Part shown: piece after piece, positions 2,881 through 32,960 of the stretch
Position numbering within the stretch: position 1 is the stretch's first letter
Layout of the letters: every line of letters starts with the position of its first letter
From: Candidatus Curtissbacteria bacterium RIFCSPHIGHO2_12_FULL_41_17
GTDB taxonomy: Bacteria > Patescibacteriota > Microgenomatia > Curtissbacterales > GWA2-41-24
DNA length: 34,370 nucleotides
Direction of reading: 5' to 3'
Assembly (NCBI GenBank): GCA_001774945.1
Contig: MFBL01000058.1
Span: forward strand, 1 to 34,370
The notes under the pieces: model-generated
The model's database searches: none
What the model was told of the DNA's origin: nothing
The model's input: only the letters and a program-made list of their open reading frames with translations
Made by a program: the position numbers and the translations under genes

Positions 2881-2996
2881 GGTCGAATGATATTAACAAA
2901 ATAAACATGACAGGTCAACTAGATTTAGATGTCACCTCTTTACAACTTCAATCTTCAGACTATCTCTTAATTTTACATTCAATATCAAACGTTTCA

Positions 2997-3005
2997 TGGT
3001 ATAAT
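2997..3005 (+). promoter_or_regulatory. Extended -10 promoter (TGnTATAAT), probably near-leaderless transcript
   Basis: tggtataat 8 nt before the ATG at 3014. Confidence 0.5.
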
Positions 3006-3013
3006 CCGCAGCT

Positions 3014-3292
3014 ATGATTGAGAGAGGGTTTGAACTTTTAAGAAAACTTCCAGCAAAGGCCGAAGCGGTTATTGGGGCAGTTGGAACAACCGCTTACGGA
3101 GTAACTGCGGCTGCTCCGGCTGAAGTCCAAGATGTTTACGGAGAAGTTCCCATAAGCGGGTGGTTGATAAACATATTGTCAGCAGCCGATTTAAGAATAG
3201 CGGCAGGAGCTTTAGTAATTGTTTTTGGGGCTGTAGCTTTTGACGGTCTTAAGAGACTGCTGAGTGAGCGGCATGCCGCAGGTGATGAGTAA
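3014..3292 (+). CDS. Small hypothetical membrane protein
   Basis: 92-aa ORF with hydrophobic segments, divergent from rplY, with a promoter-like motif upstream. Confidence 0.55.
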   Translation: MIERGFELLRKLPAKAEAVIGAVGTTAYGVTAAAPAEVQDVYGEVPISGWLINILSAADLRIAAGALVIVFGAVAFDGLKRLLSERHAAGDE

Positions 3293-12123: not shown

Positions 12124-12210
12124 AATTCAAAATTTAAAGTTCAAAATTAAAAATTTAAAAATTCTGACTTTTTACTTGAACTTTCGACCTTTGACTTTTA
12201 AGTTTTGAGT
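12124..12210. repeat. Pair of inverted 7-nt arrays with no gene between them
   Basis: aattcaa aatttaa agttcaa aattaaa aatttaa ... ttgaact ttcgacc tttgact tttaagt tttgagt. Confidence 0.7.
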
Positions 12211-12265
12211 TTATTGCTTAGGTTACTAGAAATTAAATGAGATATCAAGTCACAAAAATCTTAAG

Positions 12266-12434: not shown

Positions 12435-13805
12435 GTGGAAGCAAAAAAAATCTGGGCTAAAATTCTATCGGAAATCAAAAGGCATGTTTCGGCCTCAACC
12501 TTCAAGACGTGGTTTGCCGGATCATTTATTGTGGAGTACAAAAAAACCGCCGTTAAAAGTGTTTTAATTATTGCCTTTAAAAATAATTTTTTGAAAGAAC
12601 AGGTCGAAAAAAGATATTTGCCGCAAGTTGCCAAAATCGCAAGCAGAGAGCTCGGCGAGCCAACAGAGATCCTCCTGATAGTTACCCAAAAACAAAATCA
12701 AATAAAAGAAAAAGGGCCGATTTTTTCCGGAGTTGCACCTTTGCAATTTTTAAAGACAAGGCAGGCAAATGATCTAAAAAGTGATCATACTTTTGATAAT
12801 TTTGTGGTGGGCAACTCCAATAATCTGGCTTATCTGGTTGCCAAACAAGTAAGTGAAAACCCCGGAACAAATTACAATCCTCTTTTGTTTTTTGGGCCGA
12901 CGGGCGTTGGCAAAACTCACCTTTTGCAGGCCATAGGCAATGCGATAAAAAAAAGGGCAATTGAAGCTAAAATCCTTTATGCGTCTGCAGAAAAATTTAC
13001 CAACGACTATTTAGAATCCTTATCTTTTAAAACTCAAGCTTCCTTTCGCGCAAGGTATCGCGGGTCTGACGTTCTTTTAGTTGACGACATTCAGTTTTTG
13101 GCCGGCAAGGAAAGCACACAAGAAGAATTTTTTTATACATTTAACGAACTGTATCTTGCAAATAGGCAAATTGTTATTGCCGCAGACAGGCACCCTAAAG
13201 AACTGGGCAAACTTAAAGAAAGACTTGTTAGCCGATTTCTGCAGGGGATGGTTGCCGATATTGCCCCTCCAGATTTTGAAATGAAGATGGCAATTTTAAA
13301 AACTAAATGCAAAGAGCGGGGAATGAGTCTTGACGATGAAAGCATCTCTTATATTGCCAATACCTGCTTTGGGAGTGCGCGGGAACTTGAAGGAGTTTTG
13401 ATATCCACATTTTCTCTTGCTAAATTGTCAGGCAACAAGGTTGATTTGGCAAAAATTAAATTAATTGTTGAAAGAAATCAGACAAACAACCAAAAAGCTA
13501 CCCCCCAAACCATTATTGAAGCTGTATGCAGTTATTTTAATGTCAAACCTTCCGATCTTTCGAGTCCTTCAAGAAAATCCAATTTAGTCTTTGCCAGACA
13601 AATACTCATGTATCTTTTGCGAAAAGAGCTGCAGCTTCCACTTTCTGCGATCGGCCAGTTCGTTGGCGGCAGAGACCATTCAACAATTATCCATGGTGTG
13701 GAAAAAGTTGAAAAAGATGTTCTTTCCAACCAACCGCGAAAGGATGAGGTTCTGAGGATTAGATCCCTTTTCAACAATTACCGGGAAGTTATCGGCAAGA
13801 CTTAG
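12435..13805 (+). CDS. dnaA: Chromosomal replication initiator DnaA
   Basis: 'YNPLLFFGPTGVGKTHLL', 'LLVDDIQF', 'GGRDHSTIIHG'. Confidence 0.98.
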   Translation: MEAKKIWAKILSEIKRHVSASTFKTWFAGSFIVEYKKTAVKSVLIIAFKNNFLKEQVEKRYLPQVAKIASRELGEPTEILLIVTQKQNQIKEKGPIFSGVAPLQFLKTRQANDLKSDHTFDNFVVGNSNNLAYLVAKQVSENPGTNYNPLLFFGPTGVGKTHLLQAIGNAIKKRAIEAKILYASAEKFTNDYLESLSFKTQASFRARYRGSDVLLVDDIQFLAGKESTQEEFFYTFNELYLANRQIVIAADRHPKELGKLKERLVSRFLQGMVADIAPPDFEMKMAILKTKCKERGMSLDDESISYIANTCFGSARELEGVLISTFSLAKLSGNKVDLAKIKLIVERNQTNNQKATPQTIIEAVCSYFNVKPSDLSSPSRKSNLVFARQILMYLLRKELQLPLSAIGQFVGGRDHSTIIHGVEKVEKDVLSNQPRKDEVLRIRSLFNNYREVIGKT

Positions 13806-13960
13806 ATGTCGGGTTTTTAGTTTGTCAACAAGTTATCAACAAAGAATATGCTTTTACGGGTTGGCTTTGCAGTTATCAACAAACCTAATAATACTAATAC
13901 TTTGTTTAATATAAAAGGATAGTAGTGGATGGTATTTTATAAATTGTTGATATATAATCA
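13768..13960. other. Probable oriC unwinding region: DnaA boxes, DnaA-trios and AT-rich tract
   Basis: ttttcaaca 13768, ttgtcaaca 13822, ttatcaaca 13833 and 13873, followed by aacc-taa taa tac taa tac (13886-13900). Confidence 0.75.
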
Positions 13961-14001
13961 AAAAACTTCTGCCGACCAAACCCTTTCCTTAGAAAGCTAA
14001 A

Positions 14002-15126
14002 ATGAAATGTAAAGTCGCCCAAAATGAACTAGCAAAAGCTTTAAAAGCATGCGAAAAATCGTTTCTAGTTCGTGCCAATTTACCGGTTTTATCAAACATT
14101 TTACTTACTATAAGCAAAAATGGCTTGGAAGCACTTTCGACAAACCTGGAAACAGCTACCAGGGTGGCTGTACCCTGTCAAGGGGAAATTGATGGACGTA
14201 TTACCCTTCCGGGAAGGGTTTTTATGGATTTTATCTGGCAGCTCCCGGAGCAAACACTGGCAATTGAATTACTTGGAGAGGAAGTGCTGGTGACAACAAA
14301 GGGTTATAGCGCAAGGTTTGCCTCAATGCCGGCTGAAGAGTTCCCAGCAATTCCCAAAATAGAAAGCGGTAAAAAAATCGAAATTGAAGCAAGTGTTTTT
14401 GCCAAAGCTTGCGCCCAGGTCGTTTTTTGTGCAGCACAGGACGAAGGCAGGCCTACCTTAAACGGGATTCTTTGCGAACTTAATAAACAGAATTTTTCGA
14501 TGGTGGCAACTGACGGCTACCGTTTGGGATTTGTAACGATTCCAATCGCCGGATCAGTAAGTTTAATAAAGATGATAATACCAGCAAAGACACTCGGGGA
14601 AGTGATTAAGCTGGCAAGTGAATTAGAACAGGAAGAAGACGGAAAATCACTGACAATTACAATAGCAGACACTTTAACCCAGGCTAATTTTAAACTGGGC
14701 AATATCGAGTTTACCTCAAGATTAATTGAGGGCGAATTTCCCAATTGGCAAAAAATAATTCCGGCGAATTTTGCCACCAGCGCCAAAATTTTGCGTGAAG
14801 AATTAACAAGAAGGGTAAGAATAGCAGCTGTTTTTGCCAGGGATAGCGGCAATATCGTCAGGCTTAAATTGGAGGGTAAAAAGCTGACAATTTTGGCAAC
14901 CACAGCTCAGGTGGGTTCAAACGAAACGGAAATGGAGGCGGAGATTAGCGGCAAAGGCGGGGAGATTGCTTTCAACTACCGTTACATTTTAGAGGCACTT
15001 TCTGCGATTGATAGTGAAGTTATTAATTTCCAGATGAGCGAGAGCTTAACCCCCGGGAGGATAACACCCGAAGATACCAAAAGCGGCCTCTTCCAGATCA
15101 TTATGCCGGTCCGACTTCAAGGCTGA
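14002..15126 (+). CDS. dnaN: DNA polymerase III beta clamp
   Basis: 'LPVLSNIL', 'MVATDGYRL', 'SRLIEGEFPNW', 'IIMPVR'. Confidence 0.97.
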   Translation: MKCKVAQNELAKALKACEKSFLVRANLPVLSNILLTISKNGLEALSTNLETATRVAVPCQGEIDGRITLPGRVFMDFIWQLPEQTLAIELLGEEVLVTTKGYSARFASMPAEEFPAIPKIESGKKIEIEASVFAKACAQVVFCAAQDEGRPTLNGILCELNKQNFSMVATDGYRLGFVTIPIAGSVSLIKMIIPAKTLGEVIKLASELEQEEDGKSLTITIADTLTQANFKLGNIEFTSRLIEGEFPNWQKIIPANFATSAKILREELTRRVRIAAVFARDSGNIVRLKLEGKKLTILATTAQVGSNETEMEAEISGKGGEIAFNYRYILEALSAIDSEVINFQMSESLTPGRITPEDTKSGLFQIIMPVRLQG

Positions 15127-15157
15127 CATTTGACAATTGACCATTAACATTTAACAT
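15124..15157 (+). repeat. Left 7-nt array flanking four-helix-bundle gene 1
   Basis: tgacatt tgacaat tgaccat taacatt taacat-ATG. Confidence 0.85.
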
Positions 15158-15532
15158 ATGCGCAAGTTCCGCTTTAGAAAATTTAAAGTTTACCAAGACG
15201 CCATCAGGTTTCGAATGCGCATTAAGGCTTTAACGAATAAGTATTTCCCAAAAGACGAGAAGTATTTAATTATAGATCAAATCATTAGGGCAGCAAACTC
15301 AATTGTTCTGGCAATTGCTGAGGGCGCGGATCGATCAACTGACAAAGACTTTGCTTTATTTCTCAATCGTGCCCACACCTCTTTAAACGAGGTTGTTGCT
15401 TGTTTAGATATTGCCCTTGCCGAGAAATTTATAAGCCTGCGGGTTTACTTGGAGTATGTTGCCGAAGCGGAGAATTTGGCAAACCAGATAACCGCATTTA
15501 GAAGAAAATTATTAATAAGCCCTTCTAAGTAG
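15158..15532 (+). CDS. Four helix bundle protein (23S rRNA IVP / Avd-like family)
   Basis: 'FRKFKVYQ...FPKDEKY..IDQIIRAANSIVLAIAEG..R...DF..FL..A..SLNE'. Confidence 0.9.
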   Translation: MRKFRFRKFKVYQDAIRFRMRIKALTNKYFPKDEKYLIIDQIIRAANSIVLAIAEGADRSTDKDFALFLNRAHTSLNEVVACLDIALAEKFISLRVYLEYVAEAENLANQITAFRRKLLISPSK

Positions 15533-15536
15533 TATT

Positions 15537-15571
15537 TTTGTCAATTGTCACCTGTCAAATGTCAATTGTAT
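15537..15571 (-). repeat. Right 7-nt array (inverted) flanking four-helix-bundle gene 1
   Basis: tttgtca attgtca cctgtca aatgtca attgtat, the reverse complement of TGACAww units. Confidence 0.85.
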
Positions 15572-15583
15572 ACTACTGTGGGA

Positions 15584-15886
15584 ATGTTTAACTCCATTGG
15601 TGATTTAATTCGCACAATACCCGTACGTTCACGCTCTCCACGGGCAATACTTGCCCTTCAGGTAAGAAATGCCGCTTTGGAATCATTGGCTTTGGTTTGC
15701 AGTGATTTACCAAAAGAAATAATAGAGGCGATCAAGCCCTCTGTTTTTAAAGGCGGAGTGCTGACAATAACTGCTCCTCAAATGGTGACAGGTGAGCTTC
15801 AGATGCGCTCTGAGGGGCTGATAAAGGAAATAAATAAGGTGTTGGGGAAAAGAATTGTTACGCGCTTAAGGTTTAGGGTTGGTTAA
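15584..15886 (+). CDS. dciA: DUF721/DciA family replicative helicase loader
   Basis: 'GVLTITAP.....ELQM....LIKEIN..LG...VTRLRFRVG'; downstream of dnaN; ATG at 15584. Confidence 0.75.
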   Translation: MFNSIGDLIRTIPVRSRSPRAILALQVRNAALESLALVCSDLPKEIIEAIKPSVFKGGVLTITAPQMVTGELQMRSEGLIKEINKVLGKRIVTRLRFRVG

Positions 15887-16939
15887 GAATTGACTTTTGA
15901 TTGCGGGTAAAATCATACTGATTTCGCCACCTTTTTTATCTTCAGTTACAACATTCCCTATAAATACATATACTGGTTGTAAAAAAGCTTGTTCGGGAAT
16001 AGGTAAGTAGTACCCGAGATTCACTTTGGTAATTGACAATGAACTGACTCTAATTATTTGGGTTTCCCCTTCACCTTGTATTGGCTCGCTTGGTTTAAAG
16101 CCAGCGATAACACCGCCTCCTGCTAAAATTTCTTTTACTGCTTCATCAACTGATTTAACTGGGTACTTTTCGAGGGGCTGGAGTTCGGGAATCAGCCTTA
16201 CTGATAGCGCGGTGACCTCCCCCTCTTTAGTGATGGTAAGAGACGCCAACATTTGGTCCGCATTATGGTCGAGAAGTGGATACTGACCCAGCTTTAGAGT
16301 TACTAAGACGTTTATTTTGTCTGCTTGGGAAATGTCGCTTACTTTCTGGGGTGCGGCACTGGGTGTATTTTTATAATAAGAAATCTTTTCGGCATTTATC
16401 TCTACGGTATCTTCGAGCAAGCCTTTTTGTTTAAGAAAAACCCTGATTGTTTGTTCCAGATCTTCCTCGGTAAAAATTTTCCTTACCGAATAGGCAATTG
16501 GGGTTTTGAGGGGTGAAGTTTTTTTATAGTTTAGCCTGAATCTATCAATTGAGAGTGAGATTTCCGGCAAATTCCAGCGATAAGTTTCGCCCAGAATGGC
16601 GTCTTGGGCTGTTTGGGGTTCTTGTGGAATTCCGAAATTGCTTGCGATTTGGATTGCCCTATTTTTATTTAGCGGTTTGTCATTCCACTGAAAAACAAGT
16701 ACAGGTGGTACTTTTTCTTGAGTTTGGCTGATGTTTTGGTTAATTCTCAGCGACCCAGACTTTTCTATTAGGGGGGTCTGTACGATGGCAGGGGGTGCGA
16801 TTTTAGTTTGGGGGGGCACGTTTTGTTGTTGCGCATGTTGACGTAGCCAGATTAAAAAAAATAGAGAGAGAATGATAACGGCTCCCAATATGGGAATTGA
16901 GATTTTTTTAAATATTTGGGAAAGACTCGTCAGGTTCAT
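15866..16939 (-). CDS. Hypothetical membrane-anchored extracytoplasmic protein
   Basis: 357 aa with a single N-terminal TM; last gene of the minus-strand secretion cluster. Confidence 0.7.
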   Translation of the reverse strand: MNLTSLSQIFKKISIPILGAVIILSLFFLIWLRQHAQQQNVPPQTKIAPPAIVQTPLIEKSGSLRINQNISQTQEKVPPVLVFQWNDKPLNKNRAIQIASNFGIPQEPQTAQDAILGETYRWNLPEISLSIDRFRLNYKKTSPLKTPIAYSVRKIFTEEDLEQTIRVFLKQKGLLEDTVEINAEKISYYKNTPSAAPQKVSDISQADKINVLVTLKLGQYPLLDHNADQMLASLTITKEGEVTALSVRLIPELQPLEKYPVKSVDEAVKEILAGGGVIAGFKPSEPIQGEGETQIIRVSSLSITKVNLGYYLPIPEQAFLQPVYVFIGNVVTEDKKGGEISMILPAIKSQFLTNPKP

Positions 16940-25061: not shown

Positions 25062-25154
25062 AATTTTCAATTTACAATTTTAAATTTTCAATCAATTTAT
25101 AATAATTTAATTTTTAAACATTTAGATTTCATTTCAAATTAAAAATTAAAAATT
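25062..25154. repeat. Inverted AT-rich 7-nt arrays upstream of prgI
   Basis: aattttc aatttac aatttta aattttc ... tcaaatt aaaaatt aaaaatt. Confidence 0.6.
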
Positions 25155-25254
25155 ATCCAGGCTTTGCCTAAAGCCACCATACCATATGAAACAAGGGGCG
25201 GAAAGTAGATCAAACAGCCTCAAAATAGGTGAATTTTCACAAAAACGGAAGCTT

Positions 25255-26565
25255 CTACGGATTAAAGCGGAAGCCCTGCCCTTTTACTGTTATTGTATGC
25301 TTAGGATTGTTGGGATCATCCTCGGTTTTTTTACGCAGGCGATAAATTAGCTGGTCAATTGCTTCGTCTGTGATACCCTCGGCGACTAGGGCTTGCGGCC
25401 AGACTGCTTTGATGATTTCATCGCGAGTTATAAGGCGGCCTTGATTTTCGATTAAAAACTGCAGCAGGCGATATTCTTGCGGCGAAAGCAGGTCAGTAAT
25501 CAGATTTTGCCCCCTCATTATCTCCTTTGTCTTCTCGTTAAAAGTAAATTTTTCCGAAATCAGAGTGGGAACAGTGCTTATTACAAATTCTTTTAACAAT
25601 GGGATAGTAAAAATATATTGTTGTATTGTTAAATTGCCTGCCTGCCGGCGAGGCAGGTTAGATTGTTCCAATTTCTTAAGCAAATCGAATTTAATAAGAT
25701 TCTCCAGGGTATCTTTCATCGGCTCTTTGTTTTGGGCAACTGACCTGAGAGCCTGTTGCTCCGGAGCAGTTAAGGCCAGCCAAATTTCGGAAAGGGTCGC
25801 TTGGACAATTTGTGTTTTAAGGAGAGTATCCATATCAAGCGAAATATTTTCCCTGAGATGTGATTCTGCCAAGACTTTAGTCAGTTTAATATGTCCGCCT
25901 GAAATATCTATGATTTTTTCTTTATCTTTTTGGGGAATTTTTTTGTCAAATACCCGTTCAATTTGCGAAAAGAGGAGATTAGTGGCAGCCTCGTCATGGA
26001 TTGCAAGATAGACAATATTGCCGGTAAAAAAATCATAGAAATCCTTCAAAATCTCCCCGTCAACAAGTTCTGTCAGATCTCTTCTGGTTGCAAAGGCTAC
26101 TGCAAATTTATATTTGGCGATACTTTTGAGGCTTCTTAACAGCTGAAAGAATGATCTGGGAATCCGGTTTTGATATTCGTCAAAGTGATCGAAAAGAAAA
26201 ATAATAGTTTGACCTTGTACAACAAGTTTATTGACAGCCTCGGTTAACTTTTTTGTCAGAACAAAGTAATCGCCAGTATTAGGCGCTTTTTCGTCGAGTG
26301 CTACAAGCAAAAACTTGGCGATCTGTTCCTCTTGATAGTTAGTATGTTCCAAATTTAAGTAGAGAAAACGGACAGCCTCCTCTTTTTCTTTAAGGTGGAA
26401 CTTTAGCAAATTGCGGTTATGGGAAAGAAGCCGAAGAATTGTGGCTTTGCCGGCACCGGGAATGCAGACAATTTGGCAGAATTTACCCGTAAGTACATAG
26501 TCTAATATTTGTTTGACTTCCCCCCGGCGGTAGTCGTTTGGGAATGTGGACTCGAAGATAAGCAT
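25255..26565 (-). CDS. P-loop (STAND/AAA-like) ATPase with C-terminal OmpR-type winged HTH
   Basis: 'IPGAGKAT', 'FLFDHFD'; C-terminal 'LSPQEYRLL..L..N.GR..TRDEI..AVW...IYRLRKK.EDDP..P....TVKGQGFRF'. Confidence 0.85.
   Translation of the reverse strand: MLIFESTFPNDYRRGEVKQILDYVLTGKFCQIVCIPGAGKATILRLLSHNRNLLKFHLKEKEEAVRFLYLNLEHTNYQEEQIAKFLLVALDEKAPNTGDYFVLTKKLTEAVNKLVVQGQTIIFLFDHFDEYQNRIPRSFFQLLRSLKSIAKYKFAVAFATRRDLTELVDGEILKDFYDFFTGNIVYLAIHDEAATNLLFSQIERVFDKKIPQKDKEKIIDISGGHIKLTKVLAESHLRENISLDMDTLLKTQIVQATLSEIWLALTAPEQQALRSVAQNKEPMKDTLENLIKFDLLKKLEQSNLPRRQAGNLTIQQYIFTIPLLKEFVISTVPTLISEKFTFNEKTKEIMRGQNLITDLLSPQEYRLLQFLIENQGRLITRDEIIKAVWPQALVAEGITDEAIDQLIYRLRKKTEDDPNNPKHTITVKGQGFRFNP
25613..25673. 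repeat. 8-nt array interrupted by a CCTGCC palindrome, in frame
   Basis: atatattg ttgtattg ttaaattg [cctgcctgccggcgaggcagg] ttagattg ttccaatt. Confidence 0.7.
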
Positions 26566-26579
26566 TCTAATAAGTTGTA

Positions 26580-26620
26580 TCGGTTACGGTAACGATGCCC
26601 GTTTCGTTTGTCGGTTACGT
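26580..26620 (-). repeat. 3' arm (inverted repeat) of four-helix-bundle cassette 2
   Basis: Imperfect inverted repeat of 27036-27070; includes the last codon and the stop. Confidence 0.8.
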
Positions 26621-27019
26621 GGTAAGTCTTTTGAACTTACTCCAAGCGATACTTAATTTGTAAAGCTGTCTTCCGGATTTATCGTAAATATCAACGAGTT
26701 GATCAATAATTTTCTTGTCTATGTTATATAGATCGCGAGCTTGCTCGAGGCTAACAATCGTCTCATTGCACTCGCCCATGGCATCGTCAAGGTACTTCTG
26801 AAAACCAGCCCTCTGATGCCGTTTAGCATAACCTTCTGCTATAAGCCTTGGAATTGCCTTTGCGGATCTTGCGAGTTGATCGTGAAGATCAAACTTCTCA
26901 CTGTTTGGTAGCTTGGGTAATACTTCTTTATAAACTATGATCATTGCTTTATAAGTATTTTGGTAGACTTCAAGATCTCTAAAGCTTTTTATAATAGTTT
27001 TGTTCCCTGAGCTGTTCAT
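26615..27019 (-). CDS. Four helix bundle protein (23S rRNA IVP / Avd-like family)
   Basis: 'IKSFRDLEVYQ...LPNSEKFDL.DQL.RSAKAIPRLIAEGY.KR....F.KYL..A.GE.NE'. Confidence 0.92.
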   Translation of the reverse strand: MNSSGNKTIIKSFRDLEVYQNTYKAMIIVYKEVLPKLPNSEKFDLHDQLARSAKAIPRLIAEGYAKRHQRAGFQKYLDDAMGECNETIVSLEQARDLYNIDKKIIDQLVDIYDKSGRQLYKLSIAWSKFKRLTT

Positions 27020-27035
27020 AATTCAGTACCCCTTA

Positions 27036-27076
27036 ACGTTACCCCTAAACGATACGGGCCTCGTAACCGATTAACG
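27036..27076 (-). repeat. 5' arm (inverted repeat) of four-helix-bundle cassette 2
   Basis: Coding strand reads cgttaatcggttacgaggcccgtatcgtttaggggtaacgt; a TATAAT lies just upstream (27095-27090). Confidence 0.8.
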
Positions 27077-27228
27077 CTAAACTAATCAAATTATAAGCGA
27101 AATATAAGGAACTTGTTACCCAGATATCAAGCGAAGCTGGAAGCACTTGTGTAGGATTTGGGGCTATGAATGAACATTCGGTTGCAATTGGAAGTCCGAG
27201 ATCTTATCCTATAAGTAGAGGCAATATT

Positions 27229-31239: not shown

Positions 31240-32828
31240 CCACCTGAGCCATCATCAGGAGGTCTTCTTCCGAGATACAATTCTCTTCTTTTTCTTGCGG
31301 CGCTTCCGAGGAAGCCTGGGAGTTTTGTTGCTCTGTCCTCTTGTGCTGCCTGACCGGCTGATTGGAATGCGCCCCTTACATGTCCCACAGCTGCCCTTGC
31401 GCCTGATCCTGTATAGGCTACTCCTGCACCTGCGCCGAGGGCGCCGCCGATTGCGCCTCCGACTCCTGCTCCGCCGCCAAGACCTTTTGCGCCGATTGCT
31501 TCTTTGATCATCTTTGCCGCCTCCGGAGTCATAAATAAGACTCCGAGTGCGATTATTTTACCAATTGCAGCCGGCTCAAATCCACCGACGAGTAAAGGGA
31601 ACTTGAGAGCCCCTGAATCTGCTCCACCAAATGCACCTTCACCCTTTCCGCCAAAGGCCTCGATGCCGCCTACAATGCCGGCGAAAATGATCATTAAGGC
31701 AACTGTCGGGAAAACAGAAAGGTTGGCAGCCATTTGCTTAAACCACTCTTTGGCGCCGTTGTTGCCCGGAAGCGCCTGGATTAAAAAATAAAAAGGGGAA
31801 GCTATAGTCATAATAAGAATCATCACATAGGCCATCAAAAGCATTAGAAAAACCCTGAACATGATAAAAAGGGCGGCAATACCGACTATCAGACCGGCTA
31901 GTCCGGCTAACGGCCATTTACCAAGAAATTTAATGATATCGATGAGTGTTCCCCCACTGTCAAATATTGTATCGAGAAAGCTTGCAATAGCTTGGGCGGT
32001 TGTCACAAAAATTTCACCCCAGGAGCTAGTAATAACGCCGAAGATGCTTTTATCAAAGGCCACACCTTTAGCTGTATCTGGATCGATCAGTGTACCTGGT
32101 AATGCGTTTATAATAACGTTTAAACCCAGAAACATTAAGTCGATCATTAGACCAGCAATGGCATAGCTAAAGGTGACAAGTATTAAAGCAACAACTATTC
32201 TTGGCAGAGAGTCCTGAACAGTAGCCACAGCTTGCGGTGAAATGTGGGCTCGAAACATTATCATAAAGCCCATGATCACAAAAATTATTACAAACCCAAG
32301 ATAAGCAATATTCCTGAAGGCTTCCCAGAGTGCTTTGACAGGCTCTAATGCTCCATAGCCAAAACCCTGCGCATAGGCAGGCTGAACAGGGTTAAATTTC
32401 TGGATTTGCTGGGCGAAATACTGGACGCCGGAGGCTGGCGGTTTTGAGTATAGGCTGGCAACAAGATTGGAAGTGGCGGCCAAAGCGCCGCGACCGGCTG
32501 TGACCTCGTCTGTTTCGGGGTGAAGCAGAGAGATGCCCAAAAGATGGGTATTGAGGCTGTCGATGGTACCGGCGATTTGGTTCAGGTTAAATACCTTGTC
32601 GTCAAAGGCGTTCTTCTTAATCGCGCATTTGTTTATTACGTCGATAGCTTGCTGGGCTGTTGCATCATCTGGAATTTGACATTCGGCTGTGGGGCTGGGG
32701 GATGGTCCGACGGCGTGGGCGGGGCGGGGGGCAACGATAAACAATAAACTAGAAACTAGAAACAAGAAACTTACGGCAAGAAGCGTTAAGCGTTTAGCGT
32801 TTAGCGTTAAGCAGGCAGCGATTCTCAT
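31236..32828 (-). CDS. VirB6/TrbL-like polytopic membrane protein with signal peptide
   Basis: 'LWEAFRNIAY', 'LPRIVVALILVTFSYAIAGLMID', 'SPFYFL...LPG....W', Gly-rich tail; ATG at 32828, AHA cleavage site. Confidence 0.7.
   Translation of the reverse strand: MRIAACLTLNAKRLTLLAVSFLFLVSSLLFIVAPRPAHAVGPSPSPTAECQIPDDATAQQAIDVINKCAIKKNAFDDKVFNLNQIAGTIDSLNTHLLGISLLHPETDEVTAGRGALAATSNLVASLYSKPPASGVQYFAQQIQKFNPVQPAYAQGFGYGALEPVKALWEAFRNIAYLGFVIIFVIMGFMIMFRAHISPQAVATVQDSLPRIVVALILVTFSYAIAGLMIDLMFLGLNVIINALPGTLIDPDTAKGVAFDKSIFGVITSSWGEIFVTTAQAIASFLDTIFDSGGTLIDIIKFLGKWPLAGLAGLIVGIAALFIMFRVFLMLLMAYVMILIMTIASPFYFLIQALPGNNGAKEWFKQMAANLSVFPTVALMIIFAGIVGGIEAFGGKGEGAFGGADSGALKFPLLVGGFEPAAIGKIIALGVLFMTPEAAKMIKEAIGAKGLGGGAGVGGAIGGALGAGAGVAYTGSGARAAVGHVRGAFQSAGQAAQEDRATKLPGFLGSAARKRRELYLGRRPPDDGSGG
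32736..32814. repeat. Two adjacent 5 x 7-nt arrays encoding a signal peptide
   Basis: gataaac aataaac tagaaac tagaaac aagaaac; gaagcgt taagcgt ttagcgt ttagcgt taagcag. Confidence 0.8.
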
Positions 32829-32892
32829 CCTTCGACCCTTCGGTAAGCTCAGGGCAAGCACTTCGATAAACTCAGTGCATGCAAGCTCAGGA
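32828..32892. repeat. Nested family A REP-like hairpins
   Basis: tccttcga[cccttcggtaagctcaggg]caa[gcacttcgataaactcagtgc]atgcaagctcagga. Confidence 0.75.
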
Positions 32893-32960
32893 CGAGTGCA
32901 GGCTATAAAGTCTGAAACTCGAACTAATTTAATCTTAAGTCTAAATATTTACTGCGTCAA

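Follow-up and report, generated by a model that had tools for sequence, protein, structure and literature searches.

We analyzed a 34,370-nt stretch of DNA (the window; positions 1 to 34,370 of contig MFBL01000058.1, assembly GCA_001774945.1) from Candidatus Curtissbacteria bacterium RIFCSPHIGHO2_12_FULL_41_17, focusing on a small gene of the PF05635 family that is enclosed by inverted arrays of heptamers between dnaN and dciA. According to the list of open reading frames (ORFs) and Pfam matches, dnaA, dnaN, an ORF of 124 amino acids (aa) and dciA lie in this order on the + strand (12435-15886). The first neighbor of the ORF, dnaN (14002-15126, +), codes for the DNA polymerase III beta clamp (PF00712, PF02767 and PF02768) and is located upstream in the same orientation. 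The ORF itself (15158-15532, +), hereafter the cassette ORF, belongs to PF05635 (23S rRNA intervening-sequence protein; S23p, Avd-like) with a Pfam E value of 8.5e-26, and is followed by a co-oriented dciA (DUF721; 15584-15886, +; PF05258, E 1.3e-5).

The space on both sides of the cassette ORF is occupied by short repeats. The 5′ arm (15124-15157, +) is composed of five TRACAWT-like heptamers (TGACATT, TGACAAT, TGACCAT, TAACATT and TAACAT), each with at most one mismatch to the pattern, which end directly at the ATG at 15158; the stop codon of dnaN, TGA (15124-15126), provides the first three bases of this arm. The cassette ORF terminates with TAG (15530-15532), and after a few T-rich bases the 3′ arm begins (15536-15572, +), with about five AWTGTYA-like heptamers that are complementary to the 5′ arm (TTTGTCA, ATTGTCA, CCTGTCA, AATGTCA and ATTGTAT, at about 15536-15570). 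Tandem Repeats Finder (TRF) reported period-7 arrays at 15124-15149 (unit TGACAAT) and 15538-15569 (unit TTGTCAA), and a repeat search yielded two overlapping inverted repeats, one of 26 nt with 85% complementarity (15124-15149 and 15539-15564) and one of 31 nt with 74% complementarity (15126-15156 and 15539-15569). In the minimum-energy RNA fold predicted for 15100-15600, the arms enclose the ORF with approximately 22 pairs and several bulges (z score -2.1; 2 of 100 shuffled sequences were equally stable). An Rfam scan of 14000-16500 gave no match.

An earlier note on this DNA had described inverted heptamer arrays that enclose the gene and run from the dnaN stop to the ATG. This description was confirmed by the sequence, the repeat search and TRF, and the observation is real and far from chance. 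The same note had proposed a stem of about 35 bp; the arms do pair in the predicted fold, but this length was generous and the pairing is imperfect (74-85%). It had also proposed a promoter for dciA. A promoter-like TTGTCA-18-TATACT sequence that agrees with the consensus at 10 of 12 positions is indeed present (15545-15574, +), its -35-like hexamer being within the 3′ arm and its -10-like TATACT overlapping the final unit, 9 nt before the dciA ATG. However, TATTCT, TAGACT or TATACT occupies the same position before dciA in relatives, whether the cassette is present or absent, and the -10-like site therefore belongs to dciA's own leader.

The cassette protein matched PF05635 over model positions 1-105 of 106 with a score of 90.7 bits (cut-off 33.8). 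An AlphaFold2 model of high confidence (pLDDT 91.8) has helices at residues 10-29, 38-57, 62-88 and 94-120, which form a four-helix bundle. The best structural matches found by Foldseek were 2GSC (Xcc0516; TM 0.82-0.90) and 2RLD (BT_0352; TM 0.73-0.88), whereas Avd (4DWL) was more distant (TM 0.74/0.85, with 6% sequence identity); 2GSC was also matched by phmmer at 1.6e-6. Five chains are present in each of the PDB entries 2GSC and 2RLD, and Xcc0516 was described as a homopentamer (PMC4990558). The family motif GxxRxxxSxxxNxxE (PMC3936711) corresponds to R44-x3-S48-x3-A52-x2-E55 in the window protein, with R, S and E kept and A in place of N; the DNA of the orthologue described below (genome G021) has a codon for N at this position. 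The 23S_rRNA_IVP domain has been called functionally uncharacterized (PMC11270868).

The genome that contains the window (836 kb in 58 contigs, 40% G+C, 87% complete) holds 10 PF05635 matches. Inspection by eye revealed short-repeat flanks in 7 of the 10 copies, with a unit that is specific to each copy and complementary between its two sides. For comparison with other genes, genome-wide duplex energy was replaced by an ungapped Watson-Crick score of flank complementarity together with periodicity. By this score, the cassette ORF ranked third among 808 crude ORFs, and six of the nine scorable PF05635 genes were within the top 13. Complementary flanks with period 7 on both sides were found for only three of the 808 ORFs, all three of which were PF05635 genes. 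Similarly, TRF period-7 arrays were present at both ends of 4 of 9 PF05635 genes versus 2 of 796 other ORFs (Fisher p 1.1e-7). A second PF05635 gene is located in the window on the - strand (26615-27019, E 3.6e-21; flanked region 26560-27080). It has complementary, repeat-rich flanks of a different, CG-containing unit (CGGTTAC/GTAACCG type) and ranked fourth of the 808 ORFs.

The dnaN-dciA locus was compared among genomes of the same bacterial family. In all 22 genomes having the locus, dnaN is followed by dciA, and in four of them, including that of the window (G000, G021, G022 and G023), a PF05635 gene lies in between. The carriers are scattered on the DnaN tree, each adjoining non-carriers (G023, in which dnaN is split by N's, was excluded from the tree). 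In the sister species (G001, with a DnaN 78% identical), the spacer consists of 54 nt of a different heptamer, and its genome contains no orthologue, the best PF05635 match being 32% identical. The copy in G021 is orthologous over the ORF and both arms. Its protein is 68% identical to the window protein, and DnaA, DnaN and DciA of the same pair are 49-55% identical. The G021 gene (locus L015, 2666-3036) has a 1-nt deletion about 35 nt after the ATG and intact arms; the deletion is either a frameshift, and the gene a possible pseudogene, or an assembly error. Inspection by eye of the 18 spacers that have no gene showed 16 to be built of heptamer arrays, with hairpins in about 8 of those 16. One such empty hairpin (G008) aligns to both arms of G000 and G021 with a gap that coincides with the ORF at the apex (about 15155-15537). 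Thus, the event, in either direction, occurred at the tip of the hairpin.

When species-representative genomes were scanned with the window protein, 20 loci were detected. The ten closest, which are 52-80% identical and come from records labeled Curtissbacteria, Paceibacterota, Saccharibacteria, Nomurabacteria and similar groups, share the TGACATT/TAACATT 5′ arm, and all but one (L161) have the AATGTCA-type 3′ arm. None of these ten has dnaN, dciA or dnaA nearby; instead, the contexts include the intervals between atpG and atpD and between yebC and ruvC, as well as a position after pgk. Among 66 pairs of loci (the ten closest plus G000 and G021), clear shared neighbors were found for G000 and G021 only, and one other pair (L155 and L157) had a weak shared match of 27 residues. 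In a record titled Candidatus Nomurabacteria (L160), two cassettes are present in a single ATP synthase operon, one between atpG and atpD (1002-1364) and one after atpD (2887-3255). More distant relatives, about 40-56% identical, are found between tRNAs or within small-subunit (SSU) rRNA. Three of the 20 loci are between tRNA genes, and four (L162, L163, L164 and L166; 39-44% identical by tblastn) are in the 5′ part of the SSU rRNA. The SSU rRNA gene of L162 also carries a group I intron further along.

Where the protein is at least 50% identical to the window protein, 8 of 10 cassettes have three or more TRACAWT-like units in each arm, versus 1 of 41 others. Among these 51 cassettes, which remained after removal of those containing a stop or an X and those shorter than 95 or longer than 170 aa (L056, L156 and L171 were among the removed), arms became more alike as protein identity increased (Mantel r 0.18 and 0.22, p 0.001). 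Since arm sharing follows protein identity across unrelated sites, the arm type is a property of the protein subfamily and not of the insertion site.

Of 151 genomes sampled from the phylum, 96 have PF05635 matches, the number of which reaches 17 in 0.8 Mb. We examined the arms of 36 cassettes, comprising the best locus of 29 other phylum genomes and seven copies of the window's own genome. In 29 of the 36, the score of the true 3′ arm exceeded the 95th percentile of the scores for mismatched arm pairs; the true partner ranked first of 36 in 19 cassettes and among the top four in 30. The best period was 7 in 53 of 72 arms, 8 in 8 and 9 in 6, whereas period 7 was best in 13 of 144 control windows from the same loci. 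A co-oriented tRNA cluster encloses one cassette of this survey; of the 47 other cassette loci that were scanned, none had an rRNA location. The inverted layout is not limited to this phylum. We inspected the flanks of ten plasmid loci from other phyla found by tblastn, and detected inverted arrays around the gene in six (Anabaena sp. 90, Nostoc edaphicum, Picosynechococcus PCC 7003, Leptolyngbya, Stanieria and Azospirillum lipoferum), same-orientation arrays on both sides in three and a one-sided array in one. Some of the plasmid copies separate cas6 from cas4, cas10 from cmr3 or the two ribonucleotide-reductase genes from each other. The stem-enclosed layout is a family-wide architecture of PF05635 and not a product of chance.

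The cassettes also have a preferred orientation. Among 40 clear-armed cassettes, the 5′ arm has more G than C in 34 of 38 informative cases (p 6e-7) and is purine-rich in 33 versus 5. The upstream neighbor is co-oriented with the cassette gene in 31 of 34 cases, and both neighbors are co-oriented in 22 of 36. The G-rich 5′ arm and the upstream co-orientation together indicate that the gene is not randomly placed in its hairpin, and a PF05635 gene is normally located downstream of a gene able to supply transcription.

Heptamer arrays are abundant in the genome of the window even where no PF05635 gene is present. Period 7 is its commonest tandem-repeat period (176 TRF rows), and 111 of its 120 period-7 arrays with at least three units are away from PF05635 genes. 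An AGT/ACT core was found in 71 of 118 array units versus 21% expected. Placement in intergenic or coding sequence was not used as a criterion, because crude longest-ORF calls overrun the arrays. We also sampled 52 other phylum genomes (L081-L140), taking the first 20 kb of contig 1 from each; samples below 10 kb were listed but excluded from the test. Arrays were detected in 1 of 17 genomes with no PF05635 match versus 16 of 19 with at least five, or 1 versus 123 arrays (Mann-Whitney p 2e-6). Only 2 of 124 sampled arrays were within 120 nt of a PF05635 gene. Genomes with a single copy had no arrays in seven of seven samples, yet their PF05635 genes keep arms of their own, and genomes with 2-5 copies had 1.0-12.6 arrays per 10 kb, including contrasts within three families. 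The samples are small and related genomes are not independent, and we regard the link between copy number and arrays as a lead and not as proof. It fits either hairpins that were left or seeded by cassettes or cassettes that accumulate where hairpins exist. Solo arrays were not significantly closer to resident arms than to foreign arms (9.05 vs 7.98 +/- 0.76; 15% of random sets match). The window itself contains gene-less heptamer arrays at 96-131, 508-538, 12124-12212, 25062-25155 and 32739-32812, which are among the 120 period-7 arrays of the genome. Two adjacent pairs are included, one located between rpmH and dnaA (12124-12163 and 12190-12212) and the other at 25062-25092 and 25136-25155.

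Several known systems share features with this element. An intervening sequence in rRNA has reportedly been found in Leptospira. In a 23S rRNA intervening sequence described in more detail, the S23p ORF is in the loop of a 28-bp terminal inverted-repeat stem that RNase III cuts at mid-stem, and three tandem copies of GACAGAT plus a degenerate fourth extend up to the ORF ATG, with a copy number that varies between strains (PMC4990558). In addition, 23S_rRNA_IVP ORFs are present in 16S and 23S rRNA insertions of candidate-phyla bacteria (PMC11270868). The dnaN-dciA cassette is similar to these elements in its protein family, the position of the ORF in an inverted-repeat stem loop, the heptamers that run to the ATG, the lack of a transposase and the sporadic occurrence. 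Its terminal repeats of 26 and 31 nt enclose the ORF, in line with the stem of about 20 bp or more that is expected of rRNA intervening sequences. However, unlike these elements, the window copy is situated between protein-coding genes and not in an rRNA helix, both of its arms are heptamer arrays, and ten copies are found in a 0.84-Mb genome. The 23S rRNA gene of this genome is not in the assembly.

Cyanobacterial short tandemly repeated repetitive (STRR) sequences are heptamer tandem repeats. TAACTGA heptamer repeats have been reported in Beggiatoaceae, Cyanobacteria and Bacteroidetes (PMC4679880), and this unit contains the AGT/ACT core that is enriched here. The arrays described here resemble these known repeats in being short (2-8 heptamers), mostly intergenic and often terminated by a start codon; abundant intergenic 7-nt arrays characterize the present genome too, and both cassette arms are such arrays. 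In contrast to TAACTGA and STRR sequences, which have been reported as direct repeats of one unit with no mention of PF05635, the present arrays form complementary pairs around a gene and their units are copy-specific. A text search of the TAACTGA report gave no match to 23S, S23 or four-helix (PMC4679880), and our literature search, which covered parts of the texts, returned no link of PF05635 outside rRNA to inverted heptamer arrays.

Avd, an accessory protein of diversity-generating retroelements (4DWL; PMC10053308), has the same four-helix-bundle fold and belongs to the same superfamily. However, no template or variable repeat occurs near the window gene, whose neighbors are dnaN and dciA. 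A role in such a retroelement is unlikely here and was rejected, since no match to RVT_1 reverse transcriptase was found in this 87% complete genome. Other genes and cassettes associated with hairpins are repetitive extragenic palindromic (REP) sequences and REPINs with their REP-associated tyrosine transposases, and integron attC cassettes. Like the former, the cassette is a gene amid hairpins of a type that populates the intergenic regions of its genome; like the latter, it is a promoter-less unit that would rely on host transcription. Unlike either, it has no Y1 transposase or integrase, and it is bracketed on both sides by tandem-heptamer arms instead of a conserved palindrome. The integron reading was rejected. 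The PF05635 family has also been noted in cas loci, with 18 23S_rRNA_IVP genes (PMC3936711). In the cas-operon copies detected here (L070, L072 and L073), the gene has inverted heptamer arrays on the Anabaena and Picosynechococcus plasmids and same-orientation arrays in Pseudanabaena. The cas association of this family may therefore reflect incidental insertion into operon spacers and not a CRISPR function.

We favor, with moderate confidence, the view that the dnaN-dciA element is a transposase-less cassette of the intervening-sequence type that lives in mRNA instead of rRNA. The earlier note had arrived at such an mRNA-intervening cassette, and this idea is supported by the presence of the same arm type in unrelated contexts and by the lack of an adjacent transposase. 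Two checks that it had suggested also turned out in its favor. Presence at dnaN-dciA is patchy (4 of 22), with a sister species that has no orthologue and breakpoints at the hairpin apex in G008; matched inverted arrays surround 29 of 36 phylum cassettes and 6 of 10 plasmid loci of other phyla. Inverted arrays are thus common among homologues, and the pattern that the note had named as grounds for giving up its reading was not observed.

In this model, the unit would be a PF05635 ORF at the apex of a long imperfect hairpin whose arms are subfamily-specific inverted heptamer arrays. It would have neither a promoter nor a transposase of its own and would be co-transcribed with the upstream dnaN. 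The arms may then pair in the transcript and loop the ORF out, and by homology with rRNA intervening sequences the duplex would most likely be cut by RNase III, a gene for which is present in the genome. Such cleavage would free the ORF RNA and part the dnaN segment from the dciA segment, after which translation of dciA could start either on the processed RNA or at signals that dciA itself has at the 3′ arm. If the arms pair and are cut by RNase III, any transcription unit could tolerate such an insertion. Gain and loss of the whole unit or of its ORF may take place at hairpin apices, including those in housekeeping-operon spacers, tRNA clusters and rRNA genes.

A number of observations weigh against this view. 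The stem is imperfect, with 74-85% complementarity, and by duplex energy the cassette ORF ranked merely 39th of 729 ORFs, a low rank which we attribute to GC-rich chance duplexes and other repeat families that dominate that statistic. Mismatches in the 40 clear-armed cassettes comprised 53 G.U versus 44 A.C (p 0.42), a negative wobble test that lends no support to selection on sense-strand RNA, and the predicted pairing energy differs little between sense and antisense (-37.0 vs -34.2 kcal/mol, p 0.009). The window cassette in particular, together with three others, departs from the G-rich 5′ arm pattern, and its antisense strand pairs slightly better than its sense strand (-33.5 vs -32.5 kcal/mol). 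With regard to movement, nothing pointed to recent transposition: we saw no target-site duplication, recombinase or identical copies, and identity between the window protein and its paralogues in this genome is only 19-33%. No cassette-less allele of this organism was detected in the DNA contigs of four metagenomes. Contigs in these datasets bridge the cassette (e.g., a 3.7-kb record covering 14300-15822). Two joints (15150>15540 and 15157>15539) match over just 20-25 nt per side and are interrupted by other letters; their probable source is other loci or other organisms. Spikes in depth at the arm positions indicate that these arm sequences are common in the community. Finally, co-transcription, pairing at the RNA level, cleavage by RNase III and the mode of movement are all points that we infer, and the 7-nt period of the arms is not accounted for.

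REP-associated transposases sit among the REP hairpins that they mobilize, and a comparable relationship might hold here. The arms would then be recognition arrays, in DNA or RNA, of a trans-acting pentameric PF05635 protein, each subfamily having its own heptamer; the protein would drive insertion, copying or maintenance of the hairpins, gene-less hairpins would be non-autonomous derivatives, and the RNA stem would be secondary. We consider this rather unlikely, although several lines of evidence agree with it, such as the specificity of the arm type for the protein subfamily, the correlation of gene-less arrays with PF05635 copy number together with the contrasts within families, and the core shared by 71 of 118 array units. 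Homologues crystallize as five chains, Xcc0516 being a homopentamer (PMC4990558), and heptamer repeats are known from Cyanobacteria, Bacteroidetes and Beggiatoaceae (PMC4679880). However, no catalytic site is known in this protein, a small bundle of helices that would have to bind the arrays. Moreover, solo arrays are not significantly nearer to resident than to foreign arms, single-copy genomes keep arms with no other arrays in their samples, and the copy-number correlation, which is not phylogenetically corrected, may run in reverse, with hairpins serving as landing sites.

Two further explanations appear much less probable. A classical DNA transposon or miniature inverted-repeat transposable element, with the arms as its terminal repeats and a transposase encoded elsewhere in the genome, would explain an indel that is polymorphic at a single site, related cassettes at many loci and the inversion of the arms. 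Nevertheless, we judge it highly unlikely and rejected it: no target-site duplication is visible at the apex junction, no transposase is adjacent, the genome has no near-identical copies, and in some copies the arms extend into coding sequence. In addition, the arms differ between paralogues of one genome, so no single transposase could recognize all of them. It also seems very improbable that PF05635 is an ordinary, immobile resident gene in a hairpin-rich spacer, with hairpins that act as generic terminators, attenuators or RNA stabilizers. Nearly all dnaN-dciA spacers of the bacterial family are heptamer arrays or hairpins whether or not the gene is present, and the great majority of arrays in the genome (111 of 120) are away from PF05635 genes, as such an explanation would have it. 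However, hardly any genes other than PF05635 are bracketed by arrays (4 of 9 vs 2 of 796 ORFs; 3 of 3 by the strict definition), and the gene has a non-random orientation with respect to the G-rich arm (34 of 38). Single-copy genomes without other sampled arrays still have the arms, and the same type of protein plus arms recurs at unrelated loci.

Elements of this kind have been described from rRNA; what is new is that they occur generally in mRNA and tRNA transcription units, that their heptamer arms are subfamily-specific and that PF05635 and heptamer arrays are linked genome-wide. S23p intervening sequences have hitherto been seen as an oddity of rRNA genes, encoding a protein family with no known function. 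The packaged unit described here is a general and apparently mobile tenant of transcription units, which include replication genes, atp, yebC/ruvC, tRNA, cas, ribonucleotide reductase and 16S rRNA. Many genes annotated as four helix bundle protein in candidate-phyla bacteria and cyanobacteria thereby gain an anatomical definition, and stem excision at the RNA level would offer a testable reason why such insertions are tolerated. As far as our literature search shows, this is the first link between this protein family and the long-unexplained bacterial heptamer arrays. More tentatively, PF05635 might be the missing partner of the enigmatic STRR- and TAACTGA-type arrays, each subfamily recognizing its own heptamer, traveling in its hairpin and seeding gene-less hairpins. 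If this were true, heptamer-array load would be a trace left by the activity of PF05635 across candidate-phyla bacteria, Cyanobacteria, Bacteroidetes and giant sulfur bacteria, and a single nucleic-acid-handling module would have rRNA intervening sequences, cas-associated copies and Avd as its special cases.

Some additional features were observed in the window and in related genomes. In several relatives (L013, L014, L016, L022 and L024), the last 10-12 bases of dnaN pair with bases after its stop codon, for example GTCCGACTTCAA / TTGAAGTCGGA, with the stop in or beside the loop. The position of this hairpin is conserved across several genera, and it is absent in the window. In G012 (contig C13) and G023 (contig C49), dnaN was detected as two separate matches; the gap in G023 holds N's, and the open frame of dnaN in G012 is 427 aa, which may mean an insertion. 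The genome of the window also contains two paralogous ORFs of about 210-220 aa (C27, 9692-10363; C44, 2036-2659), each with its own inverted repeats, that by eye resemble REP-associated Y1 transposases. Finally, a separate repeat family, with examples such as CTTCGATAAACTCAGGGCAAGCA in 23-nt tandem copies and GCGGGCCTAA, is present at 32820-32900 of the window and in gene flanks on contigs C23, C35, C37 and C15 of the same genome, where it gives strong chance-like flank duplexes.

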